Origin: an archaeon
Lineage (GTDB): Archaea; EX4484-52; WAPT01
Assembly: GCA_029258795.1 (NCBI GenBank)
Contig: JAPDKB010000002.1
Coordinates: 128,001-192,000 of the forward strand
Direction of reading: 5' to 3'
DNA length: 64,000 nt
Shown here: positions 12,632-48,773 of the stretch, in pieces
Layout: each line of letters begins with the position of its first letter
How positions within the stretch are numbered: the stretch's first letter is position 1
Notes under the pieces: model-generated
Seen by the model: only the letters and a program-made list of their open reading frames with translations
Told to the model about the DNA's origin: nothing
The model's database searches: none
Made by a program: the position numbers and the translations under genes

Positions 12632-13423
12632 GAGTGCGTCCGGATAACTAAGAATTTCTCCACCACAATATAAAAATCAAAATAAGAAGGCATCACCTCC
12701 CGAGGAAGTAATACGGGGGAGGAATGTGATGCCAGATGGAAATCTACTCCCTGATAAAAAACATTCTCTCAAACATATTTAAACGTAACAGAATCCCGCT
12801 TGAAATAAAACTCCTTGCCGTAACTTTATTCTTGCATGGTATGGGTGTGAGAAGGATAAGGAAAGTGGTTCAATCCTCCAAATCTTCAGTACACGAATGG
12901 ACCTTAAAGTTCAGGCAGGTTCTGAACTTTAAGGTGGAAAAGAAGAGAAGGAGATGCATAGCAATAGATGAAACCAAGCTGAGAGTGAATCAAGCATGGT
13001 ATTACATCCATGCTGCCATGGACGCGGAAACAAAAGAATTGATAGTGATGAAAGCATACACATCAAGAAATTACTTGAACACACTCGATTTCATAAAACG
13101 GGTTACGAGATTTTGCACAAACAGGGATTTTGAGATAATAACGGATAAGATGCCGTGTTATGAACAGGTATGCAGAAGGCTTGGAGTAAGGTGGAGACAT
13201 GAGACTTTTGGAAGGAGGAATTGTATTGAGCATGTGTTCAGATCATTCAAGTTTTTCACGATGAGGTTTAATCACTGTCTGTGCGTTGATTTACGTAAGG
13301 TGAGTTTGAGACTGGACAGGGATTACTGGTTTAAGAGGGTGCTGTATTTGCTTGAATTGTGGTGTGGAATGTTTATGTTTTATTGGAATGTTTTTAGGAG
13401 GTGAGGCTTATCCGGACGCACTC
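12632..13423 (+). mobile_element. IS6-family insertion sequence, 792 bp, with perfect 16-bp terminal inverted repeats
   Basis: GAGTGCGTCCGGATAA at 12632-12647 and its reverse complement at 13408-13423 enclose one transposase ORF; no target-site duplication visible. Confidence 0.9.
12736..13404 (+). CDS. IS6-family DDE transposase
   Basis: N-terminal HTH ('SVHEW'), 'IAIDETK', 'AAMD', 'IITDK', 'RNCIEH' DDE motifs; 222 aa. Confidence 0.9.
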   Translation: MEIYSLIKNILSNIFKRNRIPLEIKLLAVTLFLHGMGVRRIRKVVQSSKSSVHEWTLKFRQVLNFKVEKKRRRCIAIDETKLRVNQAWYYIHAAMDAETKELIVMKAYTSRNYLNTLDFIKRVTRFCTNRDFEIITDKMPCYEQVCRRLGVRWRHETFGRRNCIEHVFRSFKFFTMRFNHCLCVDLRKVSLRLDRDYWFKRVLYLLELWCGMFMFYWNVFRR

Positions 13424-29667: not shown

Positions 29668-31940
29668 ACTCTCGTGGCTTTCGTCACATCTTTTTTCCCT
29701 TCTCCTCTTTCAAATCTGTAGAGGTGCTCCGCTGCACTTTCCGCAAGCGTTTCATCATGCGTTATGAGTATCACCTGTTTCAGGACTTCAACCGCTCTTT
29801 CTCTGAGCGTTCTGCCCAGCTCTTCAACCGCCTTGCTGTCCAGATTGTGTGTGGGTTCATCCAGAATCATGACCTTGAAGGAAGGAGCGAGCAGGTTGGC
29901 AAGTGCAAGCCTCAGGGTTAGAGCGGCGGTCATTCTCTCTCCTCCAGAAACGAAAGTGTCGGCATCAACCCACACACCCTCGCTGCTGAGAAGCCTTAGC
30001 ACGTAGCCATCCTCCACGAAAAGCTTGACATCCTGATAATCCTCATAAGGATATAGCACTTCCCATATCCTGCTCATCTGGAAGTTGAGGGCAGCGACAA
30101 ATTCTTCCCTTATTTCCACCTGCGCCTTTATGAGCACGTCCTGAAGCTTGATGAGCATCCCAACCTTTTCCTTCAAGCTCTCGATTTCCTCCTCAATCTT
30201 TCGAATGGTTTCTACCCTCTCCTTAATCTCGTTGAGGCGGTGTTCCTTTTCCTTTATCACTTCATTCAGCCTGCTGAGTTCACCTTTCACCGCACCAACC
30301 TTCTGGTTGAGCTCCATCACCACTTTCTCAGCTTCTTTCAGCTCGGCTTCATCAACCTTCAAGCTCATCAATTCCCTTTCAAGTTCGGCAACACCTTTCT
30401 CTATACTTCTTATCCTTCCCGCTTTTTCTATGAGGTCCAGAAGCTTCTCCACCTCTTTAAGCTCCTTCTCAATTTTTTCTTTTTCAACTTCCTTCAACTC
30501 TTTCTCAATCTGCTGAATATTTTTTTCCAAAGAGCCCAGCACCCTCCCACTGTCTTCAACCGATTTTCTCCTTTTTTCTGCCATTTCTGCCATCGATTTC
30601 AGCTTCAGCGCTTCATCCTTTTTCTTTTTCAACTCGTTCAACTCTTCCATAAGCTTTTTCCGCTTTACATTGAGCTCACCAATTTTCCTTCTGAATTCTT
30701 CAATTCTTTTTTCCTTAACCGCAATTAGTTCCTTTTTCTTTGCATATGTTAGCTTGCTCTCACAGACAGGACATGCAGCTTCCGCTTTTTTCAACGCATC
30801 AATGCTTTCTCTTTCATTATCTATGGCCGTCTTGAACATGGATACTTTCTCAATCAGCGACTTCTCCTCCATTTCGAGAGATTTTATAGTATTTTCAATC
30901 TCTTCCACATTTGGCGCTTCCTTTAACTTCTCCTCAAGTTTCCTTATCTCCTCTTCATCCCGCTTTATCTGCTCTTCAATCACGCGCTTTCGGGATTTCA
31001 GAGCTTCAAGCTCTTTTTCCTTCAAGTTAATTTCTTTCAGAGTCCTTTCAAGTTCCGACTTTCTCGCTTCAACTTCATCCTTTTTCTTTTTCTCCAGCTC
31101 CTCTACACTCATTCCATTCCTTTTTATCTCTTCAAGAAGAGCGTTTATCTCACCCTTTAGCGATGAAATTCTGTTGTTCAAGATATCGGCTTTCGCTTTC
31201 TTCTGTTTCAAATCATCCAGTTTGCTTTTTTTGTTTGTCAGCTCGTCTTCCAGCTTTTGGGCTTCTTTTTTCTTCTCCTCCAGCTCCCTTCGTTTTATTT
31301 CCAGATCCTCTTCCATCTTCTTTACATCAACACTTTCCATATCCTTTTTCCATTGAGTGAGCATGCTTTCTTTCGTCTGAATCTCCTTCTTAATGTTGTT
31401 TATTAGGGTTACCAAATTTGACCGTGCGCTCTCTATCTTATCTATCCTCAAAATCTCATCCATCTTGGCTTTTCTTTCAGCCGGTCTGAGGGAGAGAAAA
31501 GCATCTATCCTATTCTGTTCTCCATAAACTATTTGTACGAAAGTGTCGTAATCAACACCCGTGATTTTTTCAACAACTTTGGTAACCTCGTTGGTTTGGG
31601 GTGCCGCCAGAAGCCTGCCATCTTCTCTTATCTCGCTGTGATACGTGCCCTTGTTAATACTGACCTTCCTAACAACTTCGTAAGTTTTCCCGTCTATTTC
31701 CATCCACACTTTAACTTCCGCTTCATGTTTTCGTGTTGGAAACTTCATGACGAGATCCTGAATCTTCAGCTTTCTGGACTGAATGGACGGAGTTGTGCCG
31801 TACAGGCAGAAACAGACGGCTTCAAGCACAGAGCTCTTGCCAGAACCCATTGAGCCAAGAAGACAGTTCACACCCTCTGCGAATTCCAGCTCGCTGTGTA
31901 GATGTGTCTTCCAGTTTTTGAGCTCAACCTTTGTAATCAT
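29661..31940 (-). CDS. rad50: Rad50 ATPase
   Basis: Walker A GSMGSGKS, long coiled coils, central CPVC zinc hook, 'SGGE' signature, 'ILDEPT', 'ITHD'. Confidence 0.93.
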   Translation of the reverse strand: MITKVELKNWKTHLHSELEFAEGVNCLLGSMGSGKSSVLEAVCFCLYGTTPSIQSRKLKIQDLVMKFPTRKHEAEVKVWMEIDGKTYEVVRKVSINKGTYHSEIREDGRLLAAPQTNEVTKVVEKITGVDYDTFVQIVYGEQNRIDAFLSLRPAERKAKMDEILRIDKIESARSNLVTLINNIKKEIQTKESMLTQWKKDMESVDVKKMEEDLEIKRRELEEKKKEAQKLEDELTNKKSKLDDLKQKKAKADILNNRISSLKGEINALLEEIKRNGMSVEELEKKKKDEVEARKSELERTLKEINLKEKELEALKSRKRVIEEQIKRDEEEIRKLEEKLKEAPNVEEIENTIKSLEMEEKSLIEKVSMFKTAIDNERESIDALKKAEAACPVCESKLTYAKKKELIAVKEKRIEEFRRKIGELNVKRKKLMEELNELKKKKDEALKLKSMAEMAEKRRKSVEDSGRVLGSLEKNIQQIEKELKEVEKEKIEKELKEVEKLLDLIEKAGRIRSIEKGVAELERELMSLKVDEAELKEAEKVVMELNQKVGAVKGELSRLNEVIKEKEHRLNEIKERVETIRKIEEEIESLKEKVGMLIKLQDVLIKAQVEIREEFVAALNFQMSRIWEVLYPYEDYQDVKLFVEDGYVLRLLSSEGVWVDADTFVSGGERMTAALTLRLALANLLAPSFKVMILDEPTHNLDSKAVEELGRTLRERAVEVLKQVILITHDETLAESAAEHLYRFERGEGKKDVTKATRVY

Positions 31941-48573: not shown

Positions 48574-48773
48574 TGGTGCCGAGGGGGGGATTTCCTGCCA
48601 CCAGAGCAGGAAGCGCGACGAAGCTTTGCTTCGGCGGCGTTCGAACCCCCGACCTCCAGATTTCTCAGCGCCGTAACACAAAATCATCGCTTGCTCATTA
48701 CTCGGCAAACTCATCACTCATAAGCCAACACGGCTTATGAGTCTGGCGCTCTAACCAGCTGAGCTACCTCGGC
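48574..48773 (-). tRNA. tRNA-Met(CAT), elongator type, with two introns (37/38: 48662-48735, 74 nt; 59/60: 48591-48639, 49 nt); CCA encoded
   Basis: Exons 48773-48736, 48661-48640 and 48590-48574 join into a 77-nt cloverleaf: acceptor GCCGAGG/CCTCGGC, anticodon stem CCAGA/TCTGG with loop CTCATAA, T arm GGGGG-TTCGAAT-CCCCC. Confidence 0.92.

Follow-up and report, generated by a model that had tools for sequence, protein, structure and literature searches.

What could a transfer RNA (tRNA) intron be doing when it carries a perfect complement of the anticodon loop that it interrupts? This question is raised by a 64,000-nucleotide (nt) stretch of contig JAPDKB010000002.1 (positions 128,001 to 192,000; hereafter the window) from an archaeon of the EX4484-52 lineage (assembly GCA_029258795.1), in which the minus strand at 48574..48773 holds an elongator-type tRNA(CAU) gene with an encoded CCA. 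Read by eye, the gene is 200 nt long with two introns and 77 nt long when spliced, and its cloverleaf has the acceptor GCCGAGG/CCTCGGC, discriminator A, D-arm GCTC/GAGC and T-arm GGGGG/CCCCC. By the same cloverleaf, exon 1 runs from G1 to A37 (48736..48773, minus strand, with C34 at 48739), and it is followed by intron 1, 74 nt at the canonical 37/38 position (48662..48735, minus strand), a placement that draws on orthologous introns in relatives and whose removal leaves the anticodon stem CCAGA/TCTGG and the loop CTCATAA. Initiator tRNA-Met is another gene on the same contig (G000:C2:46756, with A1-U72 and the anticodon stem CCGGG/CCCGG), and the gene at 48574-48773 is therefore of the elongator type; its orthologue in Nanoarchaeum equitans was named elongator tRNA-Met by Randau 2012 (PMC3491384). 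From comparison of this intron with its relatives, we consider it somewhat probable that intron 1 is a cis-acting guide of the C/D type, built on a single kink-turn, for the 2'-O-methylation of C34 (Cm34), and that this guide competes with the splicing fold.

The element at the center of this proposal is a perfect 11-base-pair (bp) hairpin on the minus strand. Its target arm ACTCATAAGCC (48732..48742) comprises A31 to A37 together with intron bases 1-4, its loop is GTGTT (48727..48731), and its antisense or guide arm is GGCTTATGAGT (48716..48726), all assigned from the sequence and, for the two arms, also from the fold. The antisense arm is followed by G (48715) and then by ATGA (48714-48711). 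Counting upstream from ATGA, the bases are G, T, G, A and G, and the fifth of them, at 48719, lies opposite C34 (48739) and pairs with it. Folding the anticodon arm together with the intron gives a minimum-free-energy structure that contains this hairpin (-29.0 kcal/mol, z -3.14). When the same RNA was constrained to a bulge-helix-bulge, with C32-A35 paired to TGAG (48667-48664), the energy was -26.9 kcal/mol, close to that of the free fold. The constrained fold has a central helix CUCA/UGAG and a 3' bulge AAA that would hold the 3' splice site (48661..48663, minus strand), and it would be a relaxed bulge-helix-bulge because its 5' bulge UAA stands opposite two unpaired bases. Since the hairpin and the bulge-helix-bulge need the same anticodon-loop bases, the two folds are mutually exclusive. 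A first-pass annotation of this DNA had described the perfect hairpin over the anticodon and 5' splice site, its incompatibility with the bulge-helix-bulge, the pairing of the fifth base upstream of ATGA with C34 and the presence in the intron of GTGATGA (48717-48711), GCGATGA (48690-48684) and CTGA (48668-48665), and in each of these respects the sequence and the free and constrained folds agree with it.

The complementarity extends into intron bases 1-4, which form AGCC/GGCT here and different pairs in other lineages. This points to the intron-containing precursor as the partner and substrate of the antisense, and action in trans remains compatible with it. The same extension makes the excised circle, which had been suggested as the working form, unnecessary. 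The 64-kb window holds two perfect 11-bp hairpins with loops of 3-8, where 30 shuffles gave 0.13 each on average, an excess that is modest when taken alone; we regard the tRNA hairpin as non-random because it is placed on the anticodon and is conserved. The other perfect 11-bp hairpin of the window lies at 12904-12932 (arm TTAAAGTTCAG, loop of 7), and there are none besides.

Conservation was followed outward from close relatives to archaea at large. In a BLAST comparison of a 231-nt region with 61 related genomes, 49 matched, and in a dozen places the match spans the intron. Thirty loci were returned, and a tRNA(CAU) gene was readable in 25 of them (L023, L026, L028, L029 and L030 were left out of the counts, as no tRNA(CAU) was recognized in them by regular expression, or regex). 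At 19 of the readable loci the antisense is followed by one base and NTGA in register, the box standing at the same register in 19/19, while three loci are intronless and three have a short intron without the antisense module. Across 42 genomes of the phylum, a pattern restricted to the exon was found in 30 and the full module pattern in 29, the exception (G007) being intronless; extra exon-pattern matches in G001 and G002 are one shared sequence, and the G001 copy lies inside coding DNA. A scan of 185,579 species' genomes returned at least 119 loci with the module, including that of N. equitans Kin4-M, and the record labels among the matches listed are those of Micrarchaeota, Aenigmatarchaeota, Woesearchaeota/Nanoarchaeota, Nanohaloarchaea, Hadesarchaea, Marsarchaeota and Methanosarcinales.

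Parsing of 162 loci gave 128 distinct sequences, 121 of them with the module. Position 31, a column that the search pattern does not fix, pairs with its partner in 118/121 sequences (A-U 90, G-C 27), whereas permuted partners pair in 97.6 on average and in 103 at most. RNAalifold on 37 sequences recovered a 7-bp core helix in which the position 31 pair is AU in 29 and GC in 8. Covariation in orthologous introns, which the first-pass annotation had named as a check on its idea, is thus seen as an antisense conserved in register and a position 31 that is compensated. Position 30 is mostly unpaired (paired in 31/121), as expected of a guide in which the first base, adjoining the box, does not pair.

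Downstream of the antisense, the relatives share a second structure, and together the two follow the consensus guide-N-NUGA-(hairpin)-NAU-GA-Y. In the window, ATGA (48711-48714) within GTGATGA (48711..48717, minus strand) would be the D-like box, as judged from its register in relatives. It is followed in the minimum-free-energy fold by the stem GTTTGC/GCAAGC, whose 3' strand, the C-stem 3' strand (48689-48694), runs into GAT-GA (48684-48688), so that the segment at 48684..48694 and its surroundings fit the module as stem, then GAT, GA and T. With an anchored script, and for a feature that the search pattern does not fix, we found a stem of at least 3 bp abutting TGA and followed by three bases and GA in 90/121 sequences versus about 10% of shuffles, with a mean stem of 3.64 bp versus 0.97 in shuffles (121 sequences). 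The three bases after the stem are GAT, AAT or TAT in 101/119, and the base following is T or C in 102/119. The stems themselves vary by lineage (GTTTGC/GCAAGC, CCCTGC/GCAGGG, TTCC/GGAA, CCATC/GATGG, GCA/TGC), and RNAalifold on a MAFFT alignment missed them because variable-length stems were left-justified. We take this consensus to be a C/D-type kink-turn, with two sheared G-A pairs, a three-base bulge ending A-U and a U-U or U-C pair; the A-U end of the bulge presumably resembles the RU of RUGAUGA, with the canonical stem closed by a loop. The module therefore reads as a putative circularly permuted C/D core, with a hairpin-closed kink-turn and the guide on the box-D side.

The same arrangement stands in a second tRNA of this genome. 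The intron of tRNA-Leu(CAA), at G000:C3:~113040-113235 (L198, outside the window), came to notice during a search for copies of the ribosomal RNA (rRNA) guide described below. It reads ACTCAAGGGC-GCAGG-GCTCTTGAGT-G-ATGA-GCC-AACAC-GGC-AATGA-T, and C34 of this tRNA likewise lies at the fifth position from ATGA. The Leu module was found in 11/42 phylum genomes, in four families, with its own hairpin in each. The antisense varies with the anticodon and the register is constant, and conservation therefore applies to complementarity with the host anticodon loop and not to a sequence motif. Judged by its sequence, tRNA-Leu(CAA) is an independent second case of the module. A composite-module scan of the genome gave 10 matches versus 1-5 in six shuffles, and two of the 10 are the Met and Leu(CAA) anticodon loops. 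The composite pattern also occurs in the 16S-23S spacer (G000:C5:~27794, minus strand), as the hairpin TCCCGAG/CTCGGGG followed by A, CTGA, GGG...CCC and AATGA, which may be an L7Ae site or chance. As a separate observation, the Met hairpin loop GTGTT exactly complements the Leu kink-turn loop AACAC, and GCC/GGC stems occur in both; this complementarity is not retained in the same-genus genomes and was given no weight. Two half-size guides may make a kissing contact here, or the match may be fortuitous.

The genome encodes the proteins that such a guide would need, with fibrillarin and Nop5 genes adjacent and an L7Ae gene present. We propose that during transcription the intron antisense would bind A31-A37 and the start of the intron in cis. 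One base 3' of the antisense, the NUGA box (ATGA here), a short hairpin and NAUGA would form the hairpin-closed kink-turn, on which L7Ae, Nop5 and fibrillarin could assemble, and C34, opposite the fifth base, would receive the 2'-O-methyl group. The hairpin would then open, and C32-A35 would pair with TGAG near the intron 3' end, giving the bulge-helix-bulge for the splicing endonuclease; modification would precede splicing, since the hairpin must open first. In this genus and one related lineage, the freed intron might finally refold as a canonical C/D small RNA (sRNA) and guide 23S rRNA methylation. Protein binding, methylation, any coupling to splicing and the order of these events are what we infer from sequence and predicted folds. 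More tentatively, and with less confidence than for intron 1 itself, we suggest as a real possibility that tRNA introns of many small-genome archaea, at least in Met(CAU) and Leu(CAA), hold widespread natural half-size C/D guides that methylate their own wobble nucleotide in cis and also act as a switch that forces modification before splicing, and that in this clade the intron then becomes a 23S guide. If so, the intron would be a modification guide, which would offer a concrete reason why such tRNA introns persist in very reduced genomes. A natural C/D ribonucleoprotein (RNP) with one kink-turn acting in cis would also offer a minimal setting in which to determine the number of kink-turns that methylation requires, and the competing fold pair would make the order of modification and splicing testable.

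Several observations weigh against this proposal. Archaeal C/D RNPs normally need two kink-turns for full activity, and the module has one. Among the sequencing runs searched for this organism, none of RNA was listed. The duplex that is conserved is short: its core has 7 bp, and lengths run from 7 to 12 bp. In the window, the sequence that follows the antisense also makes a perfect C box, with the 3' CTGA as its canonical partner, so that a D-like role is just one of the two ways to read it; GTGATGA can be the D-like box of the module or a canonical C box, and never both simultaneously. Most of the 121 sequences were gathered with a pattern that imposes the antisense and its register, so that only the unconstrained columns test the model, and related sequences among the 121 are non-independent. 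In a sample of 151 genomes from the phylum of Ca. Micrarchaeum sp. A_DKE, the exon pattern was found in 79 genomes (a few of them chance matches) and the full pattern in 43, and the module is therefore not universal. Finally, the assignment of the gene to elongator Met rather than to tRNA-Ile2(CAU) draws on the N. equitans orthology and the separate initiator.

The strongest alternative starts from the second reading of the boxes. In canonical order, the intron offers the C box GTGATGA, the D' box ATGA (48695..48698), the C' box GCGATGA (48684..48690) and the D box CTGA (48665..48668, overlapping the TGAG at 48664-48667 that pairs with C32-A35 in the bulge-helix-bulge), all on the minus strand, with spacers of 12 nt and 15 nt. 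A permissive Rfam scan aligned 48721-48664 to the Pyrococcus C/D family sR11 (RF01150) at 23.9 bits, E 0.028 and below the cut-off of 39, and this alignment is part of the basis for the C and D' boxes; no curated Rfam C/D family was matched by the intron at gathering score. The first spacer, GTTTGCCGAGTA (48699..48710, minus strand), would be a D' guide to the genome's own 23S rRNA, and its first six bases (48705-48710) are at the same time the 5' strand of the C-stem. It pairs with AACTCGGCAAAT (large subunit rRNA positions 1760-1771) through 10 Watson-Crick pairs and one G-U, and its fifth position pairs with C1764 (G000:C5:25943); by our estimate, 4.5 kb of rRNA would contain so good a match by chance with a probability of about 0.01. 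The same guide in the same register occurs in free-standing sRNAs detected by RNA sequencing (RNA-seq), namely sRNA21 of N. equitans, which has the predicted target 23S AAAUCmGGCAAAUUG (PMC3491384), and sR169 of I. hospitalis and sR151 of T. tenax (PMC4644070). No free-standing copy of the 23S guide was found in the archaeon's own assembly. The second spacer, TTTTGTGTTACGGCG (48669..48683, minus strand), is a putative D guide that pairs with intron bases 2-7 in the constrained splicing fold, and the best that it achieves on 23S is 8 Watson-Crick pairs, about chance level and not significant. A strict canonical C/D sRNA pattern matched one place in the whole genome (two overlapping matches), which is probably coding and says little. 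Two other roles had been considered for GTTTGCCGAGTA. Pairing with the 3' acceptor strand of its own tRNA reaches only 7 bp and was dropped for the 23S match; a role as hairpin strand alone was revised after the sR11 alignment and the 23S and sRNA21 matches, and both roles were retained.

On these grounds the tRNA intron could simply host a canonical C/D sRNA aimed at 23S rRNA, with the antisense hairpin as a clamp or release timer that does not have C34 as its target. The canonical box order and spacers, the weak sR11 match below cut-off, the 23S match, with the same guide in three other archaea and no free-standing copy at home, and the non-canonical position of an antisense 5' of a C box all argue for it. 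Against this, both RTGATGA and a 3' CTGA are present in only 4/121 module introns, and the other 117/121 keep the antisense, register and kink-turn without a canonical C/D frame; the tRNA-Leu(CAA) introns have the module and no rRNA guide. The canonical frame is therefore a lineage-specific addition to a family-wide module. Of the four introns with both boxes, L001 and L002 (this genus) and L031 (labelled Aenigmatarchaeota) carry the 23S guide, and L037 is without it. L031 retains the module stem though its 3' strand differs: the first six or seven bases of the guide, GTTTGC(C), pair with GCAAGC in L001 and with GGCAGGC in L031, which indicates that the module hairpin is kept too and is something that a pure D' guide would not need. 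We therefore hold it unlikely that 23S methylation is the whole function of the intron. As the D' guide would target a conserved 23S cytidine, the excised intron, in addition to its proposed guidance of C34, probably goes on to serve as an rRNA guide in this clade. The first-pass annotation had inferred that the intron bears a guide with an unusual box order. The guide is favored by the register, the covarying kink-turn, the Leu(CAA) case and the encoded C/D proteins, and the unusual order by the conserved succession of D-like box, hairpin and C-like box; what that annotation missed is that the boxes in the window are also canonical and frame a 23S guide.

A non-catalytic switch is somewhat less likely still. 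Here an L7Ae-bound hairpin and kink-turn would hide the anticodon loop from the splicing fold, or from enzymes acting on C34, until the precursor is mature. Two mutually exclusive folds of near-equal energy are what such a switch would use, and one kink-turn suffices for L7Ae while being unusual for a methylation RNP. A switch of this kind has no need for the five-position spacing of nucleotide 34, yet that spacing is kept in two tRNAs and many phyla, and position 34 of both Met and Leu(CAA) is a known C/D target in Pyrococcus. Chance complementarity without function has a negligible probability, as the conservation, the covariation, the second tRNA and the linked kink-turn contradict it, even if about 0.13 perfect 11-bp hairpins per shuffled window make one in 64 kb unremarkable.

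Guidance of C34 by the intron thus remains the reading we prefer. Intron 2, 49 nt in the T-loop (about 48591..48640, minus strand, read from the sequence), has ends that are uncertain by 1-2 bases because of repeated A's. It is missing in both same-genus genomes (L002 and L003), in which the T-arm is GGGGGTTCGAATCCCCC, and this suggests a recent gain or loss. T-arm introns unrelated to it occur in several tRNA(CAU) orthologues, for example L007, L017, L018 and L024. The tRNA(CAU) gene at 48574-48773 was not detected by ARAGORN, nor by Rfam at gathering score, because the two introns interrupt it; the Rfam tRNA model gives 24.1 bits, below the cut-off of 29 bits because of the second intron in the T-loop. 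Over the whole genome, ARAGORN with introns allowed reported only 27 tRNA genes, several of them implausible (introns of 853-1621 nt), and many tRNA genes are probably missed in this genome through multiple or non-canonical introns. A tRNA-Trp gene was not found in the genome by a regex pattern, and loose regex scans for tRNA genes gave mostly noise. As tRNA finders overlook these genes, the module could serve as a search handle for annotation. Two tRNA-Leu genes (G000:C3:~113160-113210 and, on the minus strand, G000:C5:~31230-31280) are identical in their T-loop intron and in their 3' halves (GCTGCGGAGAAAGCTGAATAATTGCTGGAGGCTTCGCAGCTGAAAG...); gene conversion, or transfer of the intron from one tRNA gene to the other, could account for this. 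Among contigs C10, C12, C17 and C11 of this genome (G000), three short contigs have 28-31% G+C versus about 44% elsewhere, and C11 starts with four back-to-back intronless tRNA genes; these contigs may be foreign or mis-binned DNA.

One of the closest known systems is the euryarchaeal pre-tRNA-Trp intron (Haloferax, Pyrococcus), which is described as a box C/D guide for its own tRNA (PMC4090602, PMC2584109, PMC7994747). It shares with the Met intron an intron in the anticodon loop, an antisense to its own tRNA that includes C34 and a guide fold set against a splicing fold, and it uses L7Ae, Nop5 and fibrillarin, the proteins that we propose for the Met intron. The tRNA-Trp intron is a full two-motif C/D RNA with two canonical guides, for C34 and U39; unlike it, the Met and Leu(CAA) module would be a single guide upstream of a D-like box, for C34 only. 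In the window, the C34 guide lies outside the canonical positions and the canonical D' guide matches 23S rRNA, so the intron is not of the tRNA-Trp type. A 2014 review calls the tRNA-Trp intron a unique example of an intron guiding its own tRNA's modification, and if our proposal holds, that single textbook case would be extended to two more tRNAs and many phyla. Our literature search, which did not take in Joardar 2011 and Clouet-d'Orval 2001 (both of which may bear on the matter), found no report of a tRNA-Met or tRNA-Leu intron guiding its own C34 and, within the same scope, no description of the permuted single-kink-turn design; an L7Ae RNA immunoprecipitation sequencing (RIP-seq) paper mentions neither introns nor tRNA-Met.

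In archaea and in humans, C/D guides direct the formation of Cm34 in elongator tRNA-Met. In Pyrococcus, position 34 of tRNA-Met and of tRNA-Leu(CAA) is served by trans guides, and sR-tMet of haloarchaea is listed as a C/D guide for Cm34 of elongator tRNA-Met (PMC4033218). It is a separate, trans-acting gene, in contrast to the Met intron module, which would act in cis. In work by Joardar et al. 2011, sR-tMet is said to act on the intron-containing precursor and to have an atypical second motif.

In N. equitans, the elongator tRNA-Met intron was reported as stable, 66 nt long, abundant and C/D-like, with a box D and a box C with one change (PMC3491384). Its target is given as 'no prediction' (PMC3491384, Additional file 2), and the words 'anticodon' and 'wobble' are absent from the text. 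This orthologous intron (L075) has the same module, with GCTCATAGC/GCTATGAGC, T, CTGA, CCC-GAAA-GGG and GATGA, and it is without an rRNA guide, the 23S guide of N. equitans being the separate gene sRNA21. The sRNAs sRNA21, sR169 and sR151 have in common with the window guide the core TTTGCCGA and a distance of three bases from it to the D or D' box, and hence the register; they are independent genes, whereas the window guide is embedded in a tRNA intron, where its first bases also form one strand of the hairpin. Departures from the standard box arrangement have also been described before. Some N. equitans sRNAs carry box D on the 5' side of box C (PMC3491384), and a minimal single-domain C/D small nucleolar RNA (snoRNA) is reported in a review to work in eukaryotes. 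These permuted and single-domain C/D RNAs are free and trans-acting, whereas in the introns described here a permuted core would be fused in cis to its own substrate.

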